This document shows, piece after piece, positions 3,341 through 26,338 of a stretch of 33,218 bases of DNA. The position numbers and the translations under genes are program-made. Location: contig CM097882.1 in assembly GCA_044892505.1 (NCBI GenBank), positions 309,286,783 to 309,320,000 on the forward strand, given 5' to 3'. How positions within the stretch are numbered: position 1 is the first letter of the stretch; every line of letters begins with the position of its first letter. Source of the DNA: Schmidtea nova (taxonomy: Eukaryota). Below the pieces are notes generated by a model, which was given only the letters and a program-made list of their open reading frames with translations, searched no databases and was not told the DNA's origin.

Positions 3341-3487
3341 CTCGGGAGTTAGTACAGTTCACCGAAGCAAACCGTTGCAGCTGGACCGTGTGCAGGTCTT
3401 CCTGAAAACGACTTTATCGCTACGCGACAAAATCCCTACAACTCAAGCGCCCCGAAGGGTCTGAAGAGAGTCATAGTTACTCCAGCC
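3341..3487 (-). ncRNA. HDV-like self-cleaving ribozyme at the element 5' junction
   Basis: P1 GGCUGG(A)/(U)CCAGCU with G-U at +1. P3 ACC/GGU. L3 UGCACAC. P1.1 GC/GC. P4 is 9 bp with a C(UUCG)G loop. J4/2 ACUAA, with the catalytic C at 3352. P2 GGAAG/CUCCC has one mismatch. Order and spacing fit the HDV double pseudoknot. Confidence 0.85.
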
Positions 3488-3539
3488 GTTAACCAGAGCT
3501 TAGTTGAATTTCTTCACATTGACATTCATAGCACTGGGC
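3464..3539 (-). pseudogene. 76-nt 28S rRNA fragment ending at the R2-type insertion site
   Basis: Reverse complement GCCCAGTGCTATGAATGTCAATGTGAAGAAATTCAACTAAGCTCTGGTTAACGGCTGGAGTAACTATGACTCTCTT is followed by non-rDNA instead of AAGGTAGCC. Confidence 0.93.
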
Positions 3540-3913
3540 TGTCCCCACAGGGCATTGACACAACATTGAAACCTGACCTGCTGATCAAATCAAGTAGAAC
3601 AATGGATAACATACACATCCTGGATATAAAGGTGCCATATGAAAGTCAGGAGAACTTTGATAATGCTCGCAATAACAACTATGCAAAGTACAAGTCCCTT
3701 GCTATGGATCTAGGAAAAGTGCATAAGAAAAGAGTAACTGTTTCAGCACTTGTTATTGGAACCCTTGGATCCTGGGACAATGCCAACGAACCAGGACTAA
3801 AGAAGATAGGCCTTACTAAAACCGAAATAAAGGCTCTTGCCAGAAAATGCGCCATCAATGCAGTTGTCGCAAGCTACCACATCTACCGAGAACACACGTC
3901 CAGAAGCAAATAA
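3540..3913 (+). pseudogene. C-terminal restriction-like endonuclease domain of a non-LTR retrotransposon (NeSL/R5/Utopia-like)
   Basis: KPDL...ILDIKVPYE...AR...KY...ALVIGTLGSW...IYREH gives the PD-(D/E)xK RLE signature. 5'-truncated at the junction. Confidence 0.85.
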
Positions 3914-4330: not shown

Positions 4331-7300
4331 ATGAACATTATAACAAGTTTTATGAACGAAAACCCAAGTGGAAAAGAAAATGGTAAATTTATTTTTTAAT
4401 TTTTTATCATTTAGTATTAATTTAGGTAATATCAATAATTCAATTGGGAAATCGATGCTAGAAAATGCGGAAGAAAATGGTACTTAATTATTACCTTAGT
4501 AAATTATTTAACTTTTACTTTAGGTGATGTAAATATGACTGGACAAACTACCGTACAAGCTGAGATTGTTAATAATGAGAATATTATGAATAATGGAGTT
4601 ATACCTGATATGGTATTGAATGTCCAATGTAAGTATTGATTAATTTTAATTAATTTGATTATATTTTGATAATTAATTTAATCAATTTAGTAAATAACTT
4701 TAGTAAAATATTTGTAAATATATATTTTTGGTAATATTTTGTAATAATTTAAATAATCTTTACCTTACGTAAACAGTTAATTTAAACAAATTCCTTTAAT
4801 ATTATTTTGTAATAAGTTTTATATTAAATTTAAATTTTTTTAGAAATTATTATATTTAAATCATATTTATTTTAAATTTCATATTTATTTTCTAATAATT
4901 CATACTTTTATTAATTTATTTTAATGATTTTTTGATAAATTTAAAGATATTTCATATTAAGGTAAATTTTATGCGAATTATTGTAAGTCGACAAATCATA
5001 ACGACTGCCACAAATTAATGGAGCGATACTATCGTATTATAAATAACCAAGTCACCTTCTATTTATGTCCCACGTGTAAGAGCGCCCAACATATAAATTA
5101 CATTGATTTTTATTTCCAACATTATCTCCATTTAAATCAATTCTTATGTACTAAGAAAAGTCTTTTCACATTAATTAATAAAAGTAAACGACGAAATGTT
5201 ACTGTTTGTCCTAAACCGGCTAAAATAATTGTAATATCCGATGATAAAGATGTCCATTCACCAAATGACGATGTTTTAGTTATTCCTAATTTACATGTTG
5301 TCCAATATGGCGGTTCTGTTGAACCTTTGATTAAATATAATTTGAACAAATCGTATGCCATTGTTAAAATGGATGTGGATTCTTTAAATTTAAATTAATT
5401 AATTATTCCTTCGCCTTTATTAAATAAATTTAATTCAGTTATTTCCAAAATGGGATATGTAAAAGTACAGTTTTGCATTGATGTAGAATTTGAAAAAACT
5501 GGGGAATTTCAATCTTTTATAATATCAAATTCCGCAAAGCCAATGAGTGATACCTTTTTAGATGAAGGTATTGCTCTATTAAGTGAAAAAATGACTAAAG
5601 TCTGTGAAAATGGCAGCAATTGGTCAATTAATAAAATTAAAGAAATAAGCTTTAAACTTACAAAATATTCCCAAATAAGTAGATTGAGTGGTCACGGTTC
5701 TTGTTCAACCCCACCATCATTAAAGGCAAAACATTGCAGTGTCAATGTAAAGAATACAGATAAATTGTGTTTTATATAGTATTTTGGCAATTTTAAAATA
5801 CAAGGATGTGAAATCTAATAGAAGTAAGTTTTATAATTATAATCCCTCAGACCTTGTGTTTGAGCCTTCTGATTTTCCAATGAAATTATGTAATATCCCC
5901 AAATTTGAAGCGAAAACCCTGGACTGGCTATAAATATCCTTTTATATGATGAGTATTATCTAAATAATATTAATGAAGAGGAGGAAGTCATGAAACATCC
6001 ATTTGTAGATATTATTCATAGGTCAAAGGTTGTAGGCGGCACTCCAATTAATTTGATTTTGTTAGAGGAAAATGACTTTTCATTATATTGCAGTTACCAA
6101 TATTAATAGACTTTTGAATTGTGACACTCTTTCTGTTACTGATGTTCAAATAGGGTGCACTTGGTGCGAGCGTTGCTTGAATGGTTTTAGATTGACTGAA
6201 GCTTTTGAGAAACATCATGCTTTATGCATAAAAAACCAGTTAGGTACAACTTTATACACTTTACCTTCAGATAAGAACTTGGAATTAAAGATTGGTCAAA
6301 GATTGTTACCCCTCCTTTTGTTGTATATGCTGATTTTGAGGCTGTTTTACCCAAGGACGATAAGTATTTTCAACGTCACTTGCCTATCTCTGCTGGCTTG
6401 TTGCTTATTAATAACTTTACTGGCGAAAAATCGTGTAAAAGGTTTTATGGTCTTAACTGTGTAGAAGAGTTTTTGACCGAAATCAATGATATAGGAGAAA
6501 AAGTAGTTTTACCTTACTTTATAAATAATTCCAAAAAGAAAATGGAATATCTTTCCCCTGCACAAATAAGATCATTTTGTAGTTCTATAATTTGTTATTT
6601 GTGTAATAAACCTTTGAAAAATCCGGTTAAAGATCATGACCATTATACAGGTAAATACTTGGGTGCGGCTTCCTCTGAATGCAATTTTTCTCGGCAAATA
6701 AGATTCATCATGCCAGTCATATTTCATAATTTACGCGGATATGATTTGCATCATATCCTCAAGTATGGTTTAAATAAATTGGATAAATGGAATATAAGTT
6801 GTATTCCTACTACAAATGAAAAGTTTTTGACTTTATATGCAAGAGTCGATAGTTTAACTATTAAATTTATCGATTCTTGCCAATTTGTAAGCTGTAACTT
6901 AAACGATGCTGTAAAGACTTTAACAGATTTTCCTCTTACTTCATCCGAATTTATAGGGACTATTATTACTTCCAAAGGCATATTCCCATAAAATTTTGCA
7001 ACATCTTTAGAGGTTTTACAAAATACATACGAGTTGCCACCGATTTGGAAGGGAGTTAATATTGACGAATATGAAAAAGCTCAACAGATATGGGATGAAT
7101 TTAATTGTGAAACATTGTTTGATTATATGATGCTATATCTGAAATTGGATGTTTTCTTACTTGCCGACTTTTTTCAGCAATTTAGGGCAAATTCCATTAC
7201 ACATAACCGACTTGAGCCTCTTAATTTCTTGGGAATTCCAGGCATGTCATGGAATTCCGCTTTGATGACTTTGAAATCTCCAATTGAATTGCTTCAAGAT

Positions 7301-8707
7301 ATGGAGATGTATAATTTTTTGAAAGGAGATCCGTGGTAGGTTAACATTTGTTAACAAACACCATGTAGTATCCTCCGACAACACTGAGCTTCTTTATATA
7401 GATATAAATAATTTATATGGGTGGGACTTAAGCCAAAAACTACCTTATAAAGAATTTAAATGGGTAACTGATAGGGAAAAATTAAATAAAATAATTTATT
7501 ACTGTGAATCTGTTGATTTAGAAGTATTAACAATTGGATTTACATTAAAAGTCGATTTAGAAATTCCTGATTCGATTCACGACAAGCTGGATGATTTGCC
7601 AGTTGCCGCTGAAAAGATGTGTCCACCTGGCTCAAAGGTTGAGAAGTTGATGCTTACGCATTATCCCAAGAAGAACTATGTTCTTCATTGGAGACTTCTC
7701 AAACTTTTTCTTTCTCTTGGAGTAAAAATAAATCATGTCCATAGGGCAATTAAATTTAAACAAGCATGTATTTTTAAGGATTACATCGATACCAATACCA
7801 GACTTAGAGCAGAATCAAGTAATGCTCTGGGTAAAAATTATTATAAATTATTAAATAATAGTCTCTACGGTAAAACCGTAGAGAATCTTAAAAAGCGCAT
7901 AAATTTAAGATTATGTAATTCGGCTTCTAGGCTGATTACATATACTTCTAAGCCAAATTTCAAAAGGACTTTCAAAATTGACGATGATTTGGTTGCCGTC
8001 TTACTGAATAAAGATTCGGTGTGTTTGGATAGACCCAGTTACATTGGTCAAACTGTACTGGATCTATCTAAACTTAGAATGTACCAGCTGCAGTATGAAG
8101 AGTTACAAAAATATCGTAACGAATTCAACTGCGAAATCAACATCGTAGCTGGTGACACTGATTCATTTTTTCTTGAGATTAGAAATTGTAAGCTTGATAT
8201 TCTTTTACCGGTCATGATAAGAGATAACTTACTTGACACTTCTAATTATGATCCGAATCACCCATTATATAGTAGGAACCTTGATTCTGTCATTGGCAAA
8301 TTCAAAGACGAGAATAAAGGGCTTAAATACGAGGAGTGGGTGTTTCTTAGACCTAAATGTAATAGTCTTTTAGGTGACGAGGAAACTAATAAAGCTAAAG
8401 GGGCAACATTATCGGATACTGACATAAAGCATCAGTCGTACCTGGACTGTTTTAATAATAACCAAATATTTTCTGTTCCCCAAACGAGAATCACAAGTAA
8501 AAATCACCAACTTTTTACTATTAAAAATGAAAGACTGCACTGACAAATGCAGATGATAAAAGGAAATGGGTTGCGAAAAATAAAAGCTTGGCATATGGCC
8601 ATTATATGGGAGGTGACTTGGTTATATTTCAACATACCGATCCAAGAATCAATCCAGATCAACAATTTCAAGATCAAACTGAAGAAGAAACAGTTTTATT
8701 TAAATAA
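4331..8707 (+). pseudogene. polB: Spliced protein-primed family-B DNA polymerase (Polinton/Maverick type), inactivated by stops and frameshifts
   Basis: Exo motifs YADFE, FHNLRGYD and YLKLDV; Pol motifs DINNLYG, KLLNNSLYGK and GDTDS; KFKDE and KAKG. Predicted introns 4383-4425, 4480-4523 and 4629-4961 keep frame into ORF 5018. In-frame stop at 5396 and several frameshifts downstream. Confidence 0.92.
6593..6685 (+). other. Endonuclease VII (His-Me finger) domain embedded in PolB
   Basis: CYLCNKPL...VKDHDHYTGKYLGAA..ECN pattern between the ExoI and ExoII motifs. Confidence 0.8.
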
Positions 8708-10206
8708 ATTTTGTTGAAAAACTTTGTTTTTTCATTTATTTAGTTATATATTGCACAGATTAGTTTCAGTCTGTTTTTATAATTTGGGTAATAGTTTTTA
8801 GAAACTGTTGTTATGTCATAGAAATAATAGTAATATTAATAATAATAATAATAATTGTAATAAATAATTAGTTTAATATTTATCGTATTTCACCATGTAA
8901 TTTTTTTGTTGTGCAGAATTGTCTCATTTTGTTGTTTGCTTATAATATTTTGAGTAGTGCTTTCATTGAACGTTTATCATTGAAGTATTTCAAAAATTAT
9001 AATATCAATAATAACTTATACTAACAAAAGTAAATTAATAATATATAAAAAAAACTAATTAAAAAAAAATTAATTAATAAAAATTTAATTTAAATTAAAA
9101 AAAAATTAATTAATTAATTAATAAAAAAAAATAATAAAAAATTCCAAACATTTAAACAAAACACACTTTAAAAATGGCGTCAAAAAACGCGCGATAACTC
9201 ATATGGATCCAGACCTGACACTGTCTGCTACTGAAGATAAAGCATTAAATAGGACTTGCGTGTATAGAAACAATAAAAAAACAAAAAAACAAAAAGAATA
9301 AGACTAAAAACAGGGAATAAGTTAAAAATTGGAACTAAAAACGGGGGCGAAAGTAGTTAGGAATAGGAGGTAATACAATCAATAAGTTAAAAACAATAGA
9401 TAGGGACAAACAATTAAAATACAAAGGGATAAATAAAAACAATAATACAAGGGGACGAAAGAAAGCAAAGGGATAAAAGAGACGGGGGTTGGATAATCGC
9501 GACAGATAAACTAATAAAGGGATAGAAAGCAACATCGACAAAAGGGAAATATACGCCTAAAGAAAAAAGATCGGGGGATAAATGTTAACACAGAGAGTAA
9601 ATACGGGAGAAAGGGGTATGATGAGATAATAAAAGATGGAGATTTATTATTAAATGGGATGGAACTACTGACCGGTTTTCGGACATTCACCACTGTCGAG
9701 AGAGAAAAGCGAGATGTGAAAATGTGTGTAAATGACAAAATAATACTTTTGAGATACTTTCAAGTAGTACTTTAGGAATCCCATGGGTAAACTGACAGAT
9801 CAAACTAACCAGGGAAAAATAGGAAGGTGCCCATCGCAGATGTCGGGAAGTCTCTGTGGTATGACTGATCACCATGCTGTGCAGTGATGGACTGACGCGA
9901 TAGTGTTATATCTTTTTGGTTGGGGAGAGAAATAGGAAAACCTAGGGGAATAATAGGCGCGATAAAACAAAACCAAAAGAAGAGAAGTAAATATGTAACA
10001 ACTGGCCAGAGATAGGAAGCGTTATAAAATAAAAGAGATAAGTTAGCATTAAATAGAGGAAAGTAAACGACGTCGTAGTGAATTAATTGGGATATGTAAT
10101 CAGCTCTCGAGAATTTATAAAGTTACTAGTAATATAGACAAGATAATAGTAAGTAGATAGATATTTTTAACCGTAAATTTAAGATGTTTTGAAACATAGA
10201 CCCAAG

Positions 10207-10510
10207 ATGTAATTGTAGCGATCCTGAAATGCCCTGTAATTTTCTGGTCCATATGTAATTGTAGCGATCCTGGAATGCCCTGCAATTTTCGGGTCCAGAT
10301 GGGACATTTTATTGGTCGGTGAGCAAAGAGAGGGATGTCGACTTCAACTCAAACTAGTAGCCGACTCTGACCAGGAAAGAGGGTAGGGAAGCACCCATTT
10401 CCAAACTAGCAGCCAGATTATTTTTCGGCCAGAAGGAGCCAATCATAAATTATTGTAGGCCAGAGGGAGCCAATCATAAATTATTGTAGGCCAGAGGGAG
10501 CCAATCGTGA
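10207..10510 (+). repeat. 46-bp tandem duplication and 31-bp CCAAT-containing tandem repeats
   Basis: atgtaattgtagcgatcctg... occurs twice (10207-10298). ggccaga(a/g)ggagccaatcataaattattgta occurs about 2.7 times (10427-10510). Confidence 0.9.
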
Positions 10511-11339
10511 ATCATAATCCGGATTAAAAAGAGAAACACATGAAGAAAGTATTGAATTGCACACCAGAGAATAGTTAAAAAGAAATTTTAGAGAATCATG
10601 TGATTGAGAGGTAACTGATTACATATCGCCAAAGTAAATTATGGAGAACCGCGGAATAAAGTAAATTGGAGTGAGTGAGTAAATTAATCAAAGATAGGAA
10701 GATAAAGTGAATTAAAACTAGTAAATAGAATAGATTAAAGTAAACGAATAAAGTGAGATAGAGAATAGAGTAGAATAAAATAGGAGAATAAAGTGAATTA
10801 AAGTCCACTGAAGCCAAGTAGATAAAGTAAATTAAAGCAAGACGAATAAAACAGAATGGAATAGAGAAATAAAGTGATTTGAAGCGATTAGACAAATGAG
10901 GAGATTAAGGCTAATAGGCCAATGAGTAAAATAATGTAATAAAACAGAGTTTAAGGAAAATAAGGCGTATTATAAGTAGGAGAGAATCTTGAGTAACTGA
11001 GAGAAAAATGGGAAACCCCAAACGATAATTGGTTAAAAGGGTAAGAAACCCAATAGAGCGGAATTACGCTAAAATAAACGGGGGGTGTGAGGAAAATATT
11101 AATTGGTGTTATCGTATAATTATAGATAATTGATGTGACTATATAGATAATTGTTACTAGTGAATAGATAATTTAAATAGACTAAAAATCAAGTGAAATG
11201 GGATATGGGAAAATTTAAAGGAAACCGTAAAGACCCGTAAAGCTTAAACACGAACGAAAAGAATTGTTGAAGTGATTTAATTGTAATTTAGATTCCAAAG
11301 AAATCCAATCAACAACCAACAAAGAGAAAAAGGACAAAT

Positions 11340-12515
11340 CAGGACAAGAAAGGATTAAGTCATATATAAAACAGGAACCATTGAGAAATCATACTTCCTG
11401 AGACACTGTACAAGGGTTGACATAGATTTAACAGCAGAAAAAGCGGAGAAAATCAAGAGAAATCGATCGTTGTCGTTAAGACAACCGCTAAAACCTATTG
11501 AAAAGCAATTGTCGGATATTAGTGACCGAAATCAAAACCAAAAGAGAGTAAAAGAAGGACCAAAGCAAAAAGAACAAAGACAGAGAACGACGAAATAGAT
11601 TATCACCCCAGTAGAAACAAAATCGGATAACGAAGAAATAGATATCACCCCAGCAGAAAACAAAGAGACAGAAAGAATAGAAAACGTAGAAACCCCGGAA
11701 GTGGATATAGATAATAATAATAAATCAACAAGAGATAGCGGATTTGAAAACATGACGGAAGTAGAAGTTGAAAAGGAAGAATTGAGGGAGAAGTTCAGAG
11801 GCGAACCATTTAGTGGTGACGCTAGTTAATTGGACGCATTTATAAAGGAATTTAGTATATATACATAAGGGTATGCCGATGGACAGATACCACGGTAGTG
11901 GAAAGAATATCGTTGTATTTAAAGGATAGCGCTCTCGACTTATACGAAGAAGCAAGAAGCAGAGAAAAAGCACCCAAGAATTGGGAAGACGTAAAAGTAT
12001 TTTTGCAGGAAACGTTTGGAATGGCTAAGGTACTAGACCAAGCATTCGACGACTTTTCAGAGAGAAAACAGAAGAGAAACGAATCCAACGCGGTATTCGC
12101 CAGTGAATTAAGAAGGTTAGCTAAAATAGCAGAAGGCGGAAGTGTAATAAGTGAAGGATTGTTAACCGCTAAATTCGTACGAGGATTGAGGAGACCAGAT
12201 ATACGAGCACAGGTAGGATGCAAGGGGTGCGTCAACCTAGACAAGGCGTTAGAACTAGCAAACAGATTTGAATTACATATGACAGTCAATGACACCAGAA
12301 TCGCCGTAGCAGCAAGCGAGGTAAAGGAAGACAAACAGGTGGAATACACAACATTGAAACAATCTATACCGAACGCACATTTATTATTCAAAGGAGCACC
12401 AGACGGGAGAAACAATGACAACAATGAGCAAAATAATAACTGGAGGAACAGTGCGAGAAACAATGGGAATAATAATGTAGGATCAAATCGACAATGTCAG
12501 CTATTAATTACATAA
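11340..12515 (+). pseudogene. Retrotransposon Gag (capsid) remnant
   Basis: GEPFSGDAS*LDAFIKEF, then ISLYLKDSALDLYE...WEDVKVFLQETFG...KQKRNES..VFASELRRLA...FVRGL...LDKALELA. Confidence 0.8.
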
Positions 12516-12708
12516 ATCCTTTACTTTTAAAAAAGATCTCTAAATTGCGATATTATAAAGGCAATGATCATAAATACTAATTATTAAATGCAAAATAAGT
12601 TCATTTAATTACTCTCGAGATAATTAACATAAATTTATACTAAAATTAAAATCATATACAAATTATAAACCACAAAAAAGTTAATAATATAATTTCAGAA
12701 ATAAAATA

Positions 12709-12995
12709 TTAAAAAATGTTTCGCTGCTTAAATAAATCATTTATTATATTTTCTAAATATTCGTTGGTTCCTTTTAAACCATCAACAACTTTTTTGGACC
12801 ATCTAAAATATTCAACAACACGATTTTCATCCCAGCCGATAGGTGTATCACGATTTAAGTCTCGAAGATTGTAAATTTTGTCAGCTAATTTCACTAATTT
12901 GGCTTGGTGACTCTTGAAAGGAGAATTTGAAATTTGCGCAGCTTTCCTCTCATCCCGAGATAGACTTTTGTCATCAGTTACTTCTCTAACCATAT
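12709..12995 (-). CDS. HDDC3: Last exon of an HD-domain (p)ppGpp/NADPH phosphatase MESH1
   Basis: [10 protein letters not shown]...[47 protein letters not shown] closely matches the HDDC3 C-terminus. It is preceded by a TTTTAG acceptor; I could not locate upstream exons. Confidence 0.9.
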
Positions 12996-14689
12996 CTAAA
13001 AATTTAATTAAGAATTAATAACTTTTAAAGATCAAAGTATTGTTGGGCTGGTAGAAGTGAAATTAAAATTGTATTTTAAAGTGTCAAAAAATACACACCA
13101 AAATAACATAGTTCAAAATTTATAATACTAAATAAAGCATAGTACAAACATGAAATATTATGCATACGAACCGTATTTCATAAGTCAGGGATAAAACGAT
13201 AAAAAAAGAAACATTTCAAAAGAGAGCACACAATTTGATTGCAAGTCGAATTTACATACGAAGAACTGCATGAGAATTGAATGCGGAAGATAATTGCTAC
13301 TATATTAAACTTAAAAAGGCATTATCGAAGAAAAACTTAGTATCAAAATAAAGAAAATTTTTTAAAAATTATAGTAGAAATCCCCATTGAAATAAAGTAA
13401 AATTCAGAGATAAAAAAGAAGATAGAATTAAATTAAATTTGAGTGTTTTAACCGATCAATAAATGTGCAGTAACAACTAATACGACGCCACGATGGGGAC
13501 ACACATCGTTTTAGCAAATTAAATAGAATTAGTAAGAAAATAAATTAAATGAATTAAAATTTAATCTTATCGAGTAAATTGTAAATAAATCATTTATCAA
13601 GTAACAATGCAGTTAAAATCTAATTATTCATAATTTTGATGAAAGGATACGTATGCGTATCAAAAATTAATATCAATAGACGCTGAAAATCATAACTTAA
13701 CAATCTAAATTTACGTTGCCTAACTAACATTTATAAAAATTTCTAATTACTCACTACCAGCCAGAGTCAGCATCCATTCAGTTCTATGCACTAACGTAAA
13801 ATTAAAGAATTTTAAAGATTGGTCTCTGTTTTTATTTCATTCACCCCAAGTCGGATCGGGTGTTAGTTTAATCGATCAGCGACCTCTAAAACGAATATTA
13901 TCACCAATCGTGGTCATCAAAATATTTGATTTCCAAACAAACAAAATTAATCATTCCATTTGACTATTAGGTGTTACCATGCCAAAACACTAATGGTTTT
14001 TTGTGTGTATATCCCAAACATACTATTGACTTTAATCATGTTACTACGAATCGACCTGACACGTTTATTTATCAATAAAGTTATCCATAATTCAATAGTA
14101 TTTAACTCCTATATTTGCTGGATCTGAGCAGCAATTCATGTCTCTTTGTAATAAGTTTTGAATTTACAGTGTAATTAAATCAAAAAAACATATCAACATT
14201 TATTTAGCGAATTAAGAGGGGGAATCTGTGTAATTTTAATTAAAATTATACAAAATTCTTATTAACTTAAAAAAAATATATTCAAATTTTCGTCGAGGTC
14301 ATAGCAACGGCAATAACATAGTAATTCAAGCAATTTCAGGTCCTCAAGATTCCTTTAGTAAATGAGTATAATCTGTTAACATTTTGTATTTTATATTAAG
14401 GGTTATATTTCTACCTTTCCCTTATTAATTGAATTAAACTAATTATAAATAAAAGAAAATCTATATACACTGTAGTGCCTCGGATAATAAATATTTATTA
14501 TAATATTTAATTATTTATTAAAATAAAATAACTTGTTTTAATAGCAAGTTATTTTGGAGAAGGAGATTTTCAAAATGCAACAAAATGAAGAAGAATTTGT
14601 ATTTTAATAAATATATATTTTACCTAATTATTGTAGCTTTTCCAATAACGCTACATACACAATTTTATAAGCGAGGATCCAAAAATAAG

Positions 14690-16930
14690 GAATGCTGGTG
14701 TATGGCGGAGATGAGTTTATTTGGTCTTACACTAGGGTAAACTCCACCAACATAAAAAATATATCCCCCACAATGATGCCCGTGAGGCGTCCCTAGCTAT
14801 ATCTCACGTTGGTACTGCATCAACCGGTGTATGTCAAGAGGGCAGGTGAGCAATCGAGATGATTACTATTCCCTCTTTCACATACTGGGTTCACTGGTCG
14901 GAAGAATACCTTTATCTGGCGTACACCTTGGCCCTTTAAATAATTTAAATTGAACAACCTTAACAAACAAAACCACTCTGATTCATACTTAATAGTTAAT
15001 TAAAATCAAACACAAAACTCAATTACAAATAATACATTTACAAATAATACATTTATTTATATGAACACAGTCGGATTTATCAGTTCGATCAATTGATTTT
15101 CATTCAACCCACACAGTAGGTCAACTTGAGTGCCTAATTTCTCTGCGAAAGCTCAGTGTTCACGTCTACTCTTTGCTACCATCCTGTTCTTGCGCTTTTA
15201 CTTCTGAATTCCGGTAGGCGACGGATATTTTGCGAGCGCTGGCGTTAACGTTGCAATTTCGACTGCTGTAGAGGAATCCGTCTAAGTTGCCTTTGTAGAG
15301 GGCAGTTGTGCTACCCATTTCTCCAAGGTGATGGGCCGTATTTGGTCTTGTAGATGCCGTGATACAAAATCTGTGGTGGTGGAACTGAGACAACGGTTTA
15401 TCTCGAGCTTGGTAGCTGATAATTCGGTTGTTTGATCGCTCAATGCCTGATTCAATTTGTCAATTCTTCACATTACCATTTTCATGCTGGACAACGTGAA
15501 CCAAATTTGATGCATTTCTTTATTTATACGAGTCTGTTGTGCGATTTTTCTTTTTAACGATTGATTCTCATTCTTTAGCTTACGGATCACCTGATGGGCT
15601 TTATTTATTTCTTTTGTTTCTTTACTCATTAAAAGAAAATTCCTATCATTTACCTCAGAGAAATATGTCTACGCTGGGTTCTGTACTTTTATGATTTTTT
15701 TACCCTCGGGCTTAGCTGTTGACTTTGACTACGTGAAACAACGGGACCTTCTATTTTATCACTGAAAAATTCGAGTTCTACGCTATGTTTTTCATTAGTA
15801 CCAATCGTACCCTAAATCTGTATTCTCAAGTACTAGTACAGTTCGTGAACGGAACTTATATAATCGAGCTATTTTCTCTCTCAATCAAACTCATCATTAC
15901 GTAGTAATAAAATAAAATATCAATAGCACAAACGAAACTAATGCTAATACACTATTAATTTGCCCAAACAACAATAAAAAAACTGTCGTTAGCGAGATTA
16001 TCCTTCCGTGATAAAATTTTGGATGTTGTCACCCGACTGCAGTCGAATTCCTTCAATTGAGTAGACCTTTGGATCATGCCTCCAACACAAGAGGGATTGG
16101 TAGGCAAATATCTCACAAATCTGTATGCTAGAGCTCCATGTGGATTCCTGCCGCCATGTTTCATCAAACCGGAAAGAGGTTTTTGAATTGTAGTCTCTCA
16201 CCGGCGCGGACGTTTCAAGGAGTGTACAATAGGATCATTTTGAGTGCGTTCAATTTTTAGACTGGAATCTCTCGAAAACTCATCATCTAACGTGGTAACT
16301 GATTCTGATCCCGGAACAAAATGAACCGATTTTGGGTGGCTCCTGGATCGTCGAGAATTGAACGTGAATATGGCCAGATGGGACATCCTTCCCACCAGAT
16401 TTCCTCCACCTGTTGTGACTTTCATAGGCCGAAAGGGGCTAGGCGTTTGAATTCCCTGCGACATTTTCACATATGGCTATTTAGTTCTCGGCTAACCGAT
16501 TCGGGGATCGGTTTGAGGCCCACGAGTAAGAGGATTTATTCGACCGTTATGATAGTATTGTATCCTGTCCTCAGTTGAATTTGGCCTTTGCTTTTTTGGG
16601 CTTTTGATCATCTTCATTGACACTAAATTTAATTTTAAACAAACGAAAAATTATATCGAATCACTTCTACTCGTCTCTCAGTTGGAATCTAAATGTATGC
16701 TGGGTTGTTGACCGTGAATATGACCTTGAAGTTGCAGTGCCTCCTATCAACAACTCAACACATAAAACATTAGCTTAACCATCTTGTTGCTCTTCACAAT
16801 GTAACGTTGGTAACGAAACAAATGGGTGGATGCCCGCAAACAGTGAGCGTCGAAAAAATCGAAACTATGATTGACCGAACGTCACAATGGGTTCAATGGC
16901 TACCGGTAGAAGGTCTAATGCCTGTTTGAT
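14690..16930 (-). mobile_element. Unknown-ORF cassette, copy 1 (Z'-X-Y-Z), decayed
   Basis: Z' ~16690-16925, X ~15960-16570, Y ~15110-15520 and Z ~14700-14930, each homologous to a segment of 19430-21241. Confidence 0.6.
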
Positions 16931-17094
16931 TCTTTTATTCAACGATTAATATATAAGCATTCAATAGGATTTTAATCGGCAATTCAGAATAAGCATCCAC
17001 ATTTATTAACATCAAATTAAACTGTCACCCATATATCAGGAGGATTTAAGTGGGTAATACTTTATCTTAACCAAGATTTCAATAGATAATCATA

Positions 17095-17568
17095 AATTAT
17101 GAAGAAAAACAAAACGTTTATCTGGCGCACAATACAAAAAGCAGCGTTTAAATAAACTAAAATCAATGCAGAGTTTGAAGAATTCGCTTTCAAAATATTT
17201 TGAAAATACACCAACAGCGTCGTCAAGCACACCTATAGAAATAGAAAATAATGTTACCATATCTGTTGACGATAAACTAAACACTAAATGACTTTGACAA
17301 CTTGTCAAAGTTATTTAGTGTAATAGTATTTGTCAATGACAAGCCAAGACATATATAAAAATTAATGGAGTGCGTTCAATGATACTACACAAACTGTGTG
17401 CGTTCAGTAACAAAATAGTCGAAACTTTTTTTTTATTTTACAAAATGAAAAAATGAATTTTACAAAATGAAATTGTTGTTTTTGCAAATGCATTTTTTTA
17501 ATTTGCCGCCTTTCAAACGGCCGCCTGCGTGCCACGCACGCGTTGCACGCCCGCTTGGAGCGCCCCTG
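17095..17568 (+). mobile_element. Internally deleted hAT-like DNA transposon remnant with right TIR
   Basis: KRLSGAQYKKQR...SLKNSLSKYF resembles hAT transposase N-termini. The GC-rich end reads CAGGGGCGCTCC... on the - strand. No left TIR found. Confidence 0.55.
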
Positions 17569-17887
17569 TATGGGTGGATGTTGATCTTGTAAGGTTAAGT
17601 TAAGTCTTGACTAGTTTCTTAAATGTAAAAATTTGTATATTGGATGCTAATGAGTGAAGAGATTATAAAGGGGATGTCTAAACAATTTTTCTTAGACGTG
17701 GTAGTTCACGAAGTCGGTGTTATTGATTGTAATCATCAATTCTTCTTCGAGCAGGCATGAATATAAATTTATGTAAGTTTTCTGGATGTACTATGGTGTT
17801 AATGGGCAATACGATGTATCTAATTTGTAACAATAGGTAGATGGATTTTTTAAAATAAATTTTCTAAGTGTTGTATAAAAATACAGG

Positions 17888-18042
17888 GGATGTTATAAGC
17901 TGCAAGGAATTTATGATATAGGATGTTGTAGTCTGCAAGTAGGCTAATCGATGCATTAGGGTATTGTCAGTTGCAAGAAATTTATGTTATTGGATGTTGT
18001 GATGTGCAAGGACTTCTAATATGGGATGTTGCGATTTGCAAG
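17888..18042. repeat. Five imperfect ~33-bp repeats with core GGATGTTG-N5-TGCAAG
   Basis: Cores start at 17888, 17921, 17959, 17992 and 18024. Confidence 0.8.
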
Positions 18043-18899
18043 GTGGTAATTATATATACTTCTATGGATTAAATAATCAGTTTTCAGTGTGATAATTTGA
18101 TGATGTAATGTTGCTGAATGAAACGGTTAACTAAATGATGACTGGTTGCGCCCGCTTAATAAATTACTTAAAAAATAATTAAATAAAAATTAAATAGTTA
18201 AAGGTGGGGCTTGATTTTGTGTAAAAGATTATGGGGCGAGCCTGGAAGTTTGAAGCCGTTAAAATTGTTGTATCGAAATCTGTGTAAATCTTATATACTT
18301 ATATGCTTAAATGTAAATTGCTTTCCAGATGTTGCAATTTTGTCGGGAGAGGGCTTGTTTGCCGAGAGGTAATTCCTCATGAACCGTCGCGAAATTTTCA
18401 TGTGGTCATACCAAAACTACCGAGGAAATCTTCAATGATTATAGAAAAGAGTTCTGAAAAATGGTGGGAAATCTCTATCAATTTTCGAAATTGATACACG
18501 ACTTTGAGACAGATCTGAGCATTCTAATTGATAATTTAAATGAAAGTAACAATAATATAAATTTCGAAAATTCTTTTCTAAAAGTGGAAGATATTATTCG
18601 CGATTGATTTACAATTTAAATCTTTAAAAAATTAATTTTGATTTAGAATTTAAATCTTTAAAAATTATTGTTGGAATTAAGTTTAATTTTTGGTAATAGT
18701 TGTTTTGTAAAATAATAGAAAAAATTAGATTTGGTAATTATTAAAGTAAAATTAAAAAATTTAAGTGTTGTTTAAATAATATTGGAAAATCGGGGAATGT
18801 GTTTTAAATTTTGATTTGTAATTTAGAATGTTTTAAAATTTGATTTGTAGTTTTGGAGGAGAAAATAAATCGATAGAAATTGGAGTTTTGTTAAAACAT

Positions 18900-21241
18900 G
18901 GACAGTTTTGTTTGACTATATTATAATTTTGTTTCGCTTTGTTCTCTTTTTACACACTTGAACTAGTGGTATGCTTTTTTTCTTATCCACTTCTCCCTAC
19001 TTCTTAATCCTCCCCCTGGTTTCACAAAAATGCCGCCCCGCCATTACGATATAGTTGTGATTTCTGTTTTTCTTTTTGACTCCGTCTGTTACCATAGTTT
19101 CCATCTTTTCTCCAATATCATTTTCCTGCTGAGGGTGTACTTCAACACTTTCTCGTTATTGTTTTTACTTTTTTCGATAGAACCACTTAAATCCGAATAG
19201 TTAAAGTAGTATTATGCTTCGTTATTTATCCAAATTCTCTCGGCGGCTTCCAAAAATGTCGCCCCGACATTCCAAATCTCTCCGGTTGATATCATGCGGT
19301 CACTATTAAATGAAATTCATTTTTTCCGAAGTGAGTCAATCTAATCCCGGCTGAGCTCCCAAATTTATGTTAGTATGTGCTGTGAAAACTCAAAACCCAA
19401 ATTTACTTACTGATTTTCTAAGCTCACTGAAATACACTTCCTTGCTCTCTAGGGTCCAACACACACATAAAAGCTTTACTGTGTATACACCCGTGAATTA
19501 CTCTACTCATTCACGTTGGTAATGTGCATAACAGCCGATCGCAAATCAGCAGGTGAGCTCCTACACAAGAACTAATCCTGACTTGTCGCATCGTTCGGGT
19601 TCTAGCTTGACCGATAGAAGGTCTCATTCATACTCTCCCTCGCCCATCGCTAGTCACTCTTTCGGGTGTTCACTGGCCATTTCTTATTTCGTCCCTCCTC
19701 TGCACTGAATTGCAAGTTTATATTTTAATACACCTCTTTTTAACATTTATTGGTTTTTATTCCCTACCTTTTATAGATACTATATATTTATTTATATATT
19801 TATTTATTTATAAGAGAATCTTATTCAGGAAAACAACACGGAATTACAATACATATATTCGTCCTTATCATATTACAATTATAATACACCAAGATTTCTG
19901 AGTCTTTCACGAATTTGGTCAGTTGTCCATCCCGATAGTTTCTTTATTCGCTTCGATTTCCAACTTCAGCTTCATCTGGTGGCGTTGTTGCGCATGCGAT
20001 TTCCGTCTTTTTCTTTTTGCGGCTGGGCTGTCGTCGTTGCCTCGATAACTGTATTCTCCGATTTATCCGGCGTGGAAAACCATTTCTCTAGCGTTATTGG
20101 GCGAATCAAATCCCTCAAATTTTAGGCTCTAAATCTTTTGGTTATGATCGATTGGCAATTCGCCAATTCTATTTTCAACGTGTCCACTTCACTCTTCTGA
20201 TCTTATATCACTTGCGTAGCACTCAGCAACTTATCATTTACCGGCTTCATTTCGGCAGGGGAAAAATAACTGTTGTCGATGTCGATAATTCTACTTTTCA
20301 GCTGTCCTGATGTCTTTTAGTTGATGGCCATAGTTTCCTATGCGAAGAAAGAAATTCTAACGACATGATTCTATTTAACGGTAATAAAAATGATCTTTAG
20401 GCTACTTCTATTCGGCTCTCATAAAAGTTATTCTACTTTTTATCAACCACCTTCCGTGACTTTGCTCGGTCATCCATTCCTTGGGCAGACCCGCATAACC
20501 TGTTTCCGCTTCTTAGATACTACGCTTTACTTTATTTACTATTTTATAAAAACTAAACCTATTCATACTTATTTTATATTACAATCTCTGTTATTTACTG
20601 TTTTTCGAATTAAGTTATTCATGTTTATGGTGTACTACCAATTACTACATTTATTTATGTTACATATCTAGGTTCAATACTCAAATTATCCATAATAACA
20701 AAATAAACAACTAAACATATAATTTGGCGAATTACACAAAATAACATTTGAAATTAGTCATCCTCGATAATTTCCACATCACTGTAGTTTCCATCTGATT
20801 CGCTCAACGTCGAGGGGCTGAACGGAGAGTCGGTAGGGCTTGGCGTTGGTGCGGGAGCGAACACGAATCGTCCCGTGCCCAGAAATTCTTCCCTTTGTAA
20901 TATATTTGGAATCTTCCTTGAATCTCAGTGGGAGTTTCCACAAAATACTTCGCTGGATTGGGCCAGTAAGCGCGATCCACATCGATCGGCGACTCCTTAC
21001 TGCCATGCCAGATAATCTCGGAAGGGCTATCCCTGAATAAACTAAAAGGAGGAACGGCCCCCGTTCTCTCGAATTCCTCTCGATGTTCGGCAAAACTTTC
21101 TCTGGCTAACTCTGTAGGGATCTCTTTGATGGGCATAGATATAATCAGATGATTATCGTGGACACTGGGGTTAGTGGTAGACGTATGGGTGAACGACGAC
21201 TCCACCCTCACTCCTCGGACTTGTAAACCAGTATAGAACAT
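18900..21241 (-). mobile_element. Unknown-ORF cassette, copy 2 (X-Y-Z plus a basic ORF), decayed
   Basis: X 20804-21241, Y ~19900-20340, Z ~19430-19690 and a further broken ORF ~18950-19300 (MISTGEIWNVGATFLEAAERIW...). The ORFs are separated by AT-rich spacers. Confidence 0.6.
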
Positions 21242-24202
21242 TTTAGTGCTGATTCTACATATACAAATATATTTATCATGATGATTTTATATTAAAATCA
21301 AGGGCCCTCACAATTCATTTAGTCTCTTATCGACGCAATCTATTAATAATTAAAAGTATACGTTGTTAATCTATTCTAGGGCTGAAGATTCATTGTCTTA
21401 TCCTAAATGTAAGGACGTCTATTTCTGCTCAAAAATCATTTCCATACGTAGTTCTTACGCATCAATTGTTTGGGGTTTTGCATTTAAATTTCGCTGTTCG
21501 GATTCTATAATTTTCGAGTTTATAATTTAATTTATTTATTTTGAATTAATCAACATGAAACAATCCCGCAGTCGATTTATTTTCAGGATTTTCTATTCTC
21601 TGGCGTAATCATTAAATTTGCTTGTCAACTTCTCCGGTAATTACCGGTCATTCATCCATTCTGCAATTATCATTTCTCACCCTTCCGGTAATTAAACTCA
21701 GTTAATCGAACTCCTCAGTCAGGAACTCAACACTCTCAGTTGTACTCTTGCAATACGCCACTACAATTATCGTTGTTGGCCAACTTTGTATTTGATAATT
21801 ATCTCCGCTCATCGGAAATAATTTTCCAAGAACTTACAGTCTCTCTCGTATGCCAATCAACTGGGTAATCAAATTGAATTATGATAACGCACAGGAAGTT
21901 TAAATGATTTTAAGTAAGTGGGGATAATTCTCTCGGACAAACTCAACGCGACAATTTTGAACGGAAATTGGCATGGATGGTGTTACAATAGAATATTTAG
22001 ATGACGTCCTAAAAATTGTGATAATTTATGTGGATACATCGCGTCTTACTGCGAAATCTTAGTTGTAGGTGGATCGTCAATTCACTAGCATAACTTACAA
22101 AGGCTTCTATGAGGCTAGATACAAAAACTCTGGGGATCTGGATATTGATCCCTATTCTCCGACTTGATGATGTCATGTTATTTCAATATTTCGGCCATTC
22201 TCAACGGTTTTCATGACTTTCCTTTTGAATATCGCTATTTTTAAGGGTTTCAGAATATTACTGCCGTTTTCCGACATTCACCTTATAAAAATTATCTACA
22301 CAATAAAAAGGTCTTCACGAGCAACCTATCTCCGCTCCGTGTCAAAACACGAAACAGGGACAGATCACCCCGGAGAGCCGGCAACCAAAGAGATTGATGC
22401 GACTCTCGCATTATCTATGTAATAAAGGTGACAACAACTTTAAATTTTGAAAAAAATTATTGATATACAACAATGAATTACCAAATTGAACTTCTGCAAG
22501 GCAATATTTATCAATTTCAGATAGCTGTCCTCCGAGTGTTGCTGAAACTCTTTTTGAATGAAAATGCGTGAAAGTGATGAATTTAGTAGAAAACTATGAA
22601 AATTTTCGCAGTGTAAACTGATCTTTAAAGTGTATAAAAATGACATTACATTGCTGTCCTGAGCACTTCCTTATATACTATATTCAGCGCTCAGGCAGCC
22701 AATCAAAATAAAGCTGGCTTTCTTATTGGTCAAATGACCCAATTTGTTATATTATTTATTTAATTTTATTATTTTGTTATTTTCTTTTATTTCTTTTATT
22801 AATTTTATTTAATTTCTTTTATTCTTATTATTTTCCAATTTCTGTTTAATTTCACACTTTTATCACTTTTTAATCGATTTTCCATTTCATTTATTTGTTT
22901 TAATTGCATTGTTTTCTTTGCTGATTATTCCCTAATTGTTTCATTATTACTTTAATGTTTTCCTCTGACTCTTGTCATTTTTTAATTAATTGTTTATTTT
23001 TCCTTTTATTTACTTCTGTGCTAACCCAACATGGGTGTATACAAAATAGTGAAATGAATCCAAAAATGGTAAAATAAAATTAGTGTGGGTCCTTAGAAGA
23101 AAAGAATTAAAAAATTAATAAAAAAATTAAGAATTAATTGGTTAATGGGAAACCCGAGTAAATGGGAAACCCGAGTCAATGGAGAACCCGATTAGCGTGG
23201 GAAGCCCGGATGAGCAGTGAGACAGTTAATTATCCTCGAGAAAATTAATTCCAAAGGAAACCCGAGAGGAGCGATTGGCGGAATGGTAATTGGTCATTTT
23301 AATTTTAATAAAGAACATGTCTAATTTGGAGAAACCGCTTTTAAGGTCTTGTTATTTTTACTGTTATTATTATTAATATTGTTAGCGCATGTATTACGGT
23401 GGGCGTCCTTGCGGACACAGGATAAACCCCTTTTTTTATTTATTAAGTTATAACAGGGAAAATAATTATTATAAAAATATTAAAAATTCAAAGCAAAAAG
23501 AAAATCAATAGAAATAAAAATTTACTATAGGAAACAGACGATTTGAAGTTCAAAAAATTTAAAAAAGCTAGGACAAGAAGAAATTTATTTAAAAAAAAGA
23601 AATTTAGAAAACTTAACAATTGAATTGTGATTAAAGAGAAGCGAACTACCGAAATTAAAGAAGATAAAAAATTGAAATTATTATCTTTCAATATCCCGAA
23701 TTTAGATTAACTGAAATTTTAGATCCGACAAATTGAAAACTCCGGAAACTTTAAAAAAGAAAGAAACAACAAAGAAACAACACAGACCTTTGTTTTGACA
23801 TTCTATTATTTTACGTGAGTACCCGTTTTTAGCGTTCGTTGAATTTTATTGTTATATTTTAAATAAACTAATTGGTTAAAAGTGTTGAGGTTCCGAGAAT
23901 CTCAACTTCATGGTTCGTATATAAATAAAAACAAGACTGGTTCTTCGAAATTTTATTTAATTTATAACAATTTACAAATTTGATAAAAAATAAACAATTA
24001 CCTCAAAGATAATAATTTTTAGTTATTTTGTATGTAAGTGTATGTGTATGTAAGTGCTTGTAGTTTCCTTGGCTCGGATGTAAAAATTTTGTATGCTCGA
24101 TTTTAATTTTCAAATCGTTTACCGAATTTGTAATTCTTCTTACTGTGTAAGATTTTAATAGTGGTTTGACTGAAAAATCAGTCTGATTATATATTAAACC
24201 CC

Positions 24203-25696: not shown

Positions 25697-26338
25697 CTAG
25701 AAAATAACACCAAGAAAAGTATATATTGAGCATTTATAAATCAATCCGAAGTATTTGTTTTGTCTGTTTTCTTCGACTTTTGAATTTAAATTCAATAATT
25801 TCCCAGTGACATGAATGAGAATTGGCTGGAAAAGAAACCGACAACAAACAATCACCACAATTCCCAATAGAAATCGAGCAATGTGCATAGTTAATGTCGC
25901 TTCTGGTAACACAATTTCTTCATAATTCCGAATGATATAATCAATACGAGAACCAAGCATAACCCCGAAGATGCTACCAAGTATCATGTACGTGTTAGTG
26001 CGACCACTTTTCCAAATTGTTGGATCGGGATAAATTAACGCTATGCAAAGAATAATAATGAAAAGAATTATTATTCCACTTATTTTCGTGACAATCATAT
26101 GGTGAAAATCTTCAATCCATGGACATAAAAATGCAACTAGAACTATTGCAACACCAATACCAACAATTACATCCGCTAAACTATGTACGCCTTTATACAA
26201 ACGACTAACTGATTAAAAGACACCAGAGCACCGACAATAAAATTGCCAGATAGATATAATAAGATATTTTTCTATGAACATTCAAAACTAATCCCACAGG
26301 GACAGCAACCACTACCATTGCATGAGTGGACGGCATTC
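25697..26338 (-). pseudogene. SGPP: Sphingosine-1-phosphate phosphatase (PAP2 family) 3' exon with one frameshift
   Basis: GMPSTHAM (C2 motif) and SRLYKGVHSLAD (C3 motif) plus TM helices. 1-nt frameshift near 26210; possible acceptor CTACAG ending at 26339. Confidence 0.8.

Follow-up and report, generated by a model that had tools for sequence, protein, structure and literature searches.

The minus strand of a 33,218-nucleotide stretch of the Schmidtea nova genome (assembly GCA_044892505.1, contig CM097882.1, positions 309,286,783 to 309,320,000; the whole stretch is hereafter the window) carries two copies of a cassette made of two protein-coding sequences, X and Y, followed by an element, Z. 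This cassette is the long terminal repeat (LTR) of giant Burro-type gypsy retrotransposons, and not an internal accessory region of such elements. X and Y are real genes under purifying selection that belong to no recognised family, and Z is not a gene: it is a non-coding, predicted structured RNA. The location of the cassette in the LTR, the purifying selection on X and Y, and the covariation in Z are held with high to very high confidence; that a Burro-type LTR with two selected protein genes and a predicted structured RNA amounts to a built-in regulatory unit is somewhat favoured. Burro elements are already known, and we found no description of the LTR-borne X, Y, and Z.

A preliminary description of positions 14690..21241 had recognised two co-linear minus-strand blocks, each with three unrecognised, intronless genes in the order X-Y-Z separated by AT-rich spacers, and had proposed either an independent, undescribed virus-like module or the accessory region of giant LTR elements. 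The two blocks and their order are confirmed, and the alignments between them are significant (Y1 and Y2, 38% identity over 65 amino acids, E-value 3.9e-8; X1 and X2, 27% over 86 columns, E-value 1.8e-5). The spacers are indeed AT-rich, with a GC content of 0.22–0.35 versus 0.41–0.49 in X, Y, and Z, and no reverse transcriptase (RT), integrase, or capsid lies within the blocks. The unit is larger than the extent given, as block 2 continues to 23031 and a third Z-type copy is found at 16711-16940. Two of the three genes stand, X and Y, on their substitution pattern and on intact copies elsewhere in the genome; Z does not, its reading frame not being kept and its conservation being that of base pairs.

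X is a high-copy repeat in this genome, with 1,689 first-look candidates (which are not copy numbers), 150 of them scored. Several X matches are paired about 21.6 kb apart, and these pairs are direct repeats of 3.6–3.7 kb, 99.2–99.9% identical, which in family A end in TGTTGG...CCAACA and are accompanied by 4-bp target duplications and a primer site. LTR pairs flanking gag-pol in families A and C are 99.2–100% identical and lie 21–25 kb apart; the LTR ends are TG...CA, and the target-site duplications of full elements are ATAG, CTAA, TATA, and GGAT. X, Y, and Z are contained in the paired LTRs, and X and Y are intact open reading frames (ORFs) in both LTRs of young elements of 25–28 kb. The proposal of an accessory region of giant LTR elements was thus right in kind, except that the cassette is the LTR itself. 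The primer-binding site is complementary to host tRNA-Pro(TGG) genes, and a short purine run precedes the 3′ LTR in families A and C. In families A and C (L069:3736-3765 and the LTR ends of L268), the primer site is set six bases off the LTR end and the purine run about 11 bases off the 3′ LTR; both gaps exceed the usual two bases. The tRNA-Pro(TGG) genes themselves form a long tandem array with a 308-bp period (G000:C1:459.61-459.66 Mb), and their pattern has 899 exact matches genome-wide.

The element that carries the cassette, which the preliminary description had left to be determined, could be found: X, Y, and Z lie in the LTRs of families A, B, and C. A family-A element at G000:C2:64519870-64544968 measures 25.1 kb between the outer ends of near-identical LTRs, and family A has X (167 amino acids) and Y (144 amino acids) intact in both LTRs, on the same strand as gag. 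Its internal content, as seen with Pfam, is Gag, a fusion glycoprotein, a protease, ankyrin repeats, and a TRAF ORF; there was no Pfam match for RT, RNase H, or integrase, and family A is likely to be non-autonomous and mobilised in trans. One family-A copy is nested in an element of family C, which has RT, RNase H, and integrase and whose LTRs bear their own X, Y, and Z. The family-C copy at G000:C1:163648337-163676729 (28.4 kb) has identical LTRs of 3,239 bp, an X of 158 and a Y of 194 amino acids, a RING ORF, and a TRAF ORF. In this family, X is free of stops in 146 of the 150 scored copies, many of which are paired 25 kb apart. Its Gag with CCHC knuckles is followed by the gypsy order protease, RT, RNase H, integrase, and a fusion glycoprotein (PF24664) occupies the polyprotein position between gag and protease in both families (E-values 7e-70 in C and 2e-76 in A). 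Ankyrin, MATH/TRAF, and RING domains are carried as cargo, with TRAF/MATH as a separate ORF.

This content resembles that of Burro/GYPSM1, giant gypsy LTR retrotransposons of planarians with a published size above 30 kb, whose published description has the same CCHC-knuckle Gag, a fusion glycoprotein placed between gag and protease, the order protease-RT-RNase H-integrase, and ankyrin, MATH/TRAF, and RING cargo (PMC6431247). The elements described here measure 28.4 kb in family C and 25.1 kb in family A. They differ from that account in having TRAF/MATH as a separate downstream ORF and, for family A, in the lack of RT, RNase H, and integrase. BIR, BCL2-like, and SMC motifs, assigned to published Burro elements by other methods, gave no Pfam match here at an E-value of 0.1. 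The assignment to Burro was made by domain set and published description; by itself, this domain set points to a planarian-type flatworm as host.

The loci behind the counts of X-Y-Z co-occurrence were selected for having X or Y, and these counts carry no independent weight. For a sample free of this choice, we turned to the 497 exact junctions of LTR end and primer site in the genome and took six of them without regard to X or Y. Four of these six sites had intact X and Y upstream and a RING ORF downstream (three of B type and one of a further type). B-type cassettes occur as 5′ LTRs followed by a primer site and a RING ORF and as solo LTRs that measure about 3.05 kb and are flanked by 4-bp duplications. 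Solo LTRs with such duplications include L281, L285, L197, L086, and L129; of 62 sites, 9 had matching duplications, a part of them by chance. Copies of B-type X are also seen in tandem arrays with a period of 5.5 kb (G000:C1:460.76-460.81 Mb and C1:52.57-52.72 Mb). One candidate LTR pair, formed by B-type X copies at a distance of 29.8 kb, was rejected because it is a segmental duplication.

Selection on X and Y was assessed on natural copies with open frames, excluding saturated or near-identical pairs. The pairwise ratio of nonsynonymous to synonymous substitution rates (dN/dS) was 0.11–0.27 in eight sets, versus 0.94–2.24 in the two shifted sense frames; after these exclusions, diverged family A contributed 178 and 120 of 276 pairs, family B 28 of 153 and 7 of 66, family C 272 and 267 of 276, and young family A 288 of 325 and 368 of 378. 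Changes common to several copies gave 0.14–0.31 and singletons 0.24–0.79, as expected if selection acts on active lineages and decay follows insertion. Low values (0.18–0.38) were likewise obtained for the antisense frame with common third positions, but this frame contains stops.

Intact X ORFs encode 158–211 amino acids and intact Y ORFs about 140–200. X is predicted to fold as a small alpha/beta domain (predicted local distance difference test, pLDDT, 80; predicted template modelling score, pTM, 0.70; 35-sequence alignment), and one tryptophan is invariant in its alignment. The C-terminal tail of family-A X is acidic and Ser/Pro-rich, with a net charge of −2 to −10 over the last 35 residues; B- and C-type X have no such tail. 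Y is predicted to be a coiled coil with an arginine-rich helix, in which a 90-residue helix (residues 4-93) is followed by a short conserved helix with the pattern I-R-x-x-T-x-x-x-W, then by a disordered linker, and finally by a basic helix. Of 33 Y proteins, 29 contain a 15-residue window with at least eight lysines or arginines, almost always in the C-terminal half, and the basic helix is kept across families at 20–30% identity.

That X and Y are unrecognised agrees with all our homologue searches. Pfam, searched with X and Y from several families, and PHROGs, searched with 35 X proteins, gave no match, nor did word-indexed searches (P0001, an intact X; the Y alignment; the X alignment at longer lengths), and no homologue emerged from metagenome contigs. 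Sequences of the PDB gave nothing for X or Y beyond weak matches of Y to designed coils, and the ESM Atlas no usable match for X and a best value of 0.84 for Y. Foldseek found no match for X (best E-value 0.67 in the PDB and 0.13 in the viral library; best VIA Z 2.8), and Y had no fold match in the viral library. A profile of X searched against 1.84 billion representatives had a single match, to a repetitive protein (E-value 2.6e-4), which was rejected as an artefact. These blanks are weak evidence of novelty because the libraries are poor in flatworm repeats; the fold of X may be absent from structure libraries, but the lack of a match by itself does not establish that it is novel. In a further repeat family, D, an ORF of 177–190 amino acids has a Y-like layout, with a helical part, a linker and, in two cases, a basic tail (L325:2416-2988, L340, and L347); as a candidate homologue of Y it was rejected, its probability against the Y profile being 1.7%.

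No single reading frame is kept in Z. Its matches fall in three frames simultaneously, and in the 29 of 42 sequences that have all motifs, the spacing of these is spread over the three frames (9, 11, and 9). In the 42 diverged copies, a structure of 33 pairs in six stems, one of them a pseudoknot, is predicted, with 90% of cells paired. Two-sided changes affect 22 of the 33 pairs, and the covariation score was reached by none of 500 shuffles, controls that overstate certainty because the structure was derived from the alignment on which it was scored and from copies that share ancestry. Among the stems, covariation is weakest in the pseudoknot. One strand has a second possible partner, which hints at a switch, but this alternative pairing is not backed by covariation. 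An excess of G-U over A-C pairs, mainly in one stem, favours the sense strand. Rfam gave no match at E-values up to 5 for the one family-A LTR searched. In the elements scanned, the Z model matches only at LTR ends.

Putative signals for expression begin near the 5′ end of the LTR. In families A, B, and C alike, CCAAT and TATA boxes lie at +325 to +395 and, together with a splice-donor-like site, occupy the region about 0.4–0.55 kb into the LTR; 3′ of the boxes come the donor-like site and then a GC-rich hairpin block, W (consensus energy −24.6 kcal/mol; two-sided changes in 11 of 34 pairs among 17 family-A copies). In diverged family-A copies, similarity spans promoter and W, disappears for about 0.8 kb (0–8 matches per bin at LTR nucleotides 800–1500), and returns at X, Y, and Z. 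Pyrimidine-AG sites lie just upstream of the X and Y start codons (families A and C, by eye), and AATAAA is found downstream of X and of Y in the same two families. The description of the genes as intronless holds for their coding parts, but the upstream donor-like site suggests an intron in the 5′ untranslated region. No copy with a splice-like internal deletion was seen among the loci examined. Contigs of four runs of unknown kind cover the whole LTR, spacers included, and 15 listed joints contain no GT-AG; they are uninformative on expression.

Both cassettes of the window are dead remnants, and all their features lie on the minus strand. Block 2 is the 3′ half of a whole, decayed family-A 5′ LTR of 3,664 bp (19368..23031; TGTTGG...ACA), with 65–68% nucleotide identity to the paired LTRs of the 25.1-kb element above. 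Reading along the LTR, it contains CCAAT and TATA boxes (22660..22704; putative start near 22660) matching the motifs in families A, B, and C; a putative splice donor (22476..22481) at a position comparable to those in A, B and, more weakly, C; W (22284..22437), as aligned in the 17 family-A copies; X of family-A type (20757..21241), with one frameshift near 20890 and no internal stop, 63–66% identical to P0001 (profile E-value 8e-37); Y of family-A type (19901..20331), with stops at 20319, 20205, and 20124 and a frameshift near 20010, 57% identical to the intact P0002 (profile E-value 1e-45); and the predicted structured RNA Z (19429..19652), near the LTR 3′ end, which scores 134 bits with a model whose training set included this copy. 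Six nucleotides past the LTR end lies the tRNA-Pro primer-binding site (19344..19361), complementary to host tRNA-Pro(TGG) with one mismatch, followed by a remnant of the 5′ leader (18941..19343; 74–84% identity to the family-A leader), where the element is truncated. Block 1 (14693..16690; 70–79% identity to other copies, local duplicate excluded) comes from a decayed LTR of family B, of which it is the 3′ part; it ends in CCAGCA with no primer site after it, and the 5′ part of this LTR was not found. It holds X of family-B type (16019..16598; several stops, six of them in the scanned frame, and a frameshift near 16180; profile E-value 2e-31), Y of the same type (15057..15629; four internal stops; profile E-value 1.5e-39), and Z (14712..14941), a predicted structured RNA by covariation, frame, and model evidence. 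Profiles built from intact X and Y copies elsewhere in the genome match the window exactly twice each (X at 21241-20757 and 16529-16019, Y at 20331-19901 and 15557-15075; best E-values 1e-31 to 1e-45) and the shuffled window not at all.

Between the blocks, the 3′ end of an LTR-like family-D repeat (16698..17002, minus strand), which includes the third Z-type element, has 40 scored matches at 84–88%, the window and its duplicate excluded; this end is common to 28 copies, none with a primer site after it. Unrelated repeats fill 17.0–18.9 kb, among them two interspersed repeats of unknown type (18140-18856 and 17570-18009). Positions 5084-18602, which include block 1 and not block 2, have an inverted segmental duplicate, 98–100% identical, at G000:C1:309235-309251 kb. 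Elsewhere in the window, the plus strand has the leader and gag of another family-A-type Burro element (9247-12504; 78–83% identical to a young copy; Retrotrans_gag E-value 2e-6), broken protein-primed DNA polymerase B ORFs (6275-8543; PF03175, E-value 3e-14), which we take to be probably a Polinton-like remnant, and what is presumably the restriction-like endonuclease tail of a non-LTR element (3353-3913), without Pfam support. The minus strand has a presumed HD-domain-like exon (12709-13014), also without Pfam support, a PAP2-like exon (25697-26212; E-value 4.5e-4), and a 205-amino-acid ORF repeated elsewhere in the genome (31346-31963).

How such an LTR would work can be proposed in steps of unequal strength. 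Transcription probably begins some 0.39 kb from the 5′ end of the LTR, with splicing of a short first exon to X or to Y, and the X and Y mRNAs would each end at their own poly(A) signals. With an internal promoter, splicing, and poly(A) signals of its own, any LTR, whether 5′, 3′, or solo, could make X and Y. Z, located past the poly(A) signals of X and Y and before the primer site, would thus be present only in read-through, genome-length RNA. With a start near nucleotide 390, the minus-strand strong-stop DNA would be about 3 kb long. The next steps are tentative and drawn by analogy: Y, as a predicted coiled-coil oligomer with an arginine-rich helix, might bind Z as Rev and Rex bind their response elements, and this binding might shift output from short LTR mRNAs to genome-length RNA, with X as a small folded cofactor, an equally tentative guess. 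Taken together, the LTR could conceivably be a self-contained two-gene operon, in which a spliced, Rev/Rex-like Y and a new-fold X act on a pseudoknotted switch, Z, and license genome-length RNA; we give this full scheme limited credence.

Several observations weigh against the scheme. The arginine-rich stretch of Y may be a mere nuclear localisation signal; no clear leucine-rich export signal is apparent in Y by eye, and the C-terminal helix is leucine-rich in B and C types, whereas the C-terminus of family-A Y differs. Start site, splicing, and poly(A) sites are placed by motifs alone, AATAAA being common in AT-rich DNA, and the support for the Z structure is partly circular, as noted above. 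Y is frameshifted in both LTRs of one recent family-C copy, so that it is not needed in cis. In addition, Z is not always found with Y: it occurs in family D, where neither X nor Y is detectable and the look-alike ORF is present in 3 of 20 loci, and in two of the six junction-chosen 5′ LTRs, again with no detectable X or Y. These two 5′ LTRs, L356 and L357, have Z and a primer site and no X or Y match or ORF of at least 110 amino acids within 3.5 kb upstream; they apparently represent a Burro-type family without X and Y genes.

Other explanations share parts of this evidence. The independent virus-like module or separate mobile cassette, which the absence of RT, integrase, and capsid from the blocks and the 5.5-kb tandem arrays of some B-type copies could recall, retains next to no probability, as it is refuted by the paired LTRs that flank gag-pol, with their LTR ends, 4-bp duplications, and primer site. 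An alternative with a real, if minority, chance of being right is that X and Y act on the host, as effectors of silencing or stem-cell survival borne by the LTR and comparable to the RING/IAP and TRAF cargo, and that Z is an unrelated cis element read by Gag, for packaging, dimerisation, or primer placement. The elements do carry several host-directed ORFs, the IAP region of Burro1 is reported, at second hand, to protect stem cells (PMC13465017), and Z lies 50–150 nucleotides before the primer site and is also present in families that have no detectable X or Y; yet Pfam and fold searches found no host-like domain or fold in X or Y, and the basic helix of Y is retained across families of such low identity.

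It is unlikely that X, Y, or both are transcriptional activators of the LTR promoter, comparable to Tat or Tas, with W as their RNA target. The acidic tail of family-A X, the conserved hairpin pair of W near the putative start, and the basic, helical character of Y fit such a role, but B- and C-type X lack the tail, and W lies 3′ of the donor-like site and is documented in family A only. Still less probable is a misassigned promoter, with X and Y residing in a long U3 (the LTR part upstream of the promoter) and read from the 3′ LTR or from small promoters of their own, as for sag of mouse mammary tumour virus (MMTV) and nef of human immunodeficiency virus (HIV). This would avoid the 3-kb strong-stop DNA, and TATA-like AT-rich runs do occur in the spacers too; against it, CCAAT box, TATA box, and donor-like site keep a fixed 5′-proximal place, within a conserved block, in three families.

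MMTV sag and HIV nef each consist of one ORF, located in U3 on the 5′ side of the promoter. They share with X and Y the presence of protein-coding sequence within an LTR, but here two ORFs lie 3′ of the putative promoter, hence solo LTRs could express them. Rev, Rex, Rem, and Rec are, by analogy, similar to Y as small accessory proteins with an arginine-rich motif, a likely spliced mRNA, and a structured RNA beside them (PMC2661877). They differ in that no sequence or fold match was found for Y and no export signal is evident in it, that the genes here lie wholly within the LTR, and that the carrier is a gypsy retrotransposon and not a retrovirus. Plant Ogre/Tat elements likewise combine LTRs of great length with additional ORFs whose function is unknown, but in Ogre these ORFs are described in the internal region, not the LTR (PMC6431247). 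The Burro text of the same source, its figure aside, mentions no ORFs or RNA structures inside the LTR. More generally, we found no account of these in Burro LTRs in the literature searched; Grohme et al. 2018, Lee et al. 2026, the supplements, and Repbase were outside the search and may annotate them.

LTRs are normally regarded as non-coding control DNA. Those described here hold two selected genes across families only 20–30% identical, and since X and Y lie inside the LTR of a very abundant repeat, this repeat spreads its own protein genes, also through solo LTRs. Burro1 is reported, again at second hand, to help planarian stem cells (PMC13465017), which would make the LTR-encoded proteins direct candidates for regulation of the element or for an effect on the host. 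If the proposed operon is real, regulation in the style of complex retroviruses would have arisen independently in a gypsy element, and every intact solo LTR would be a working copy of its regulator genes.

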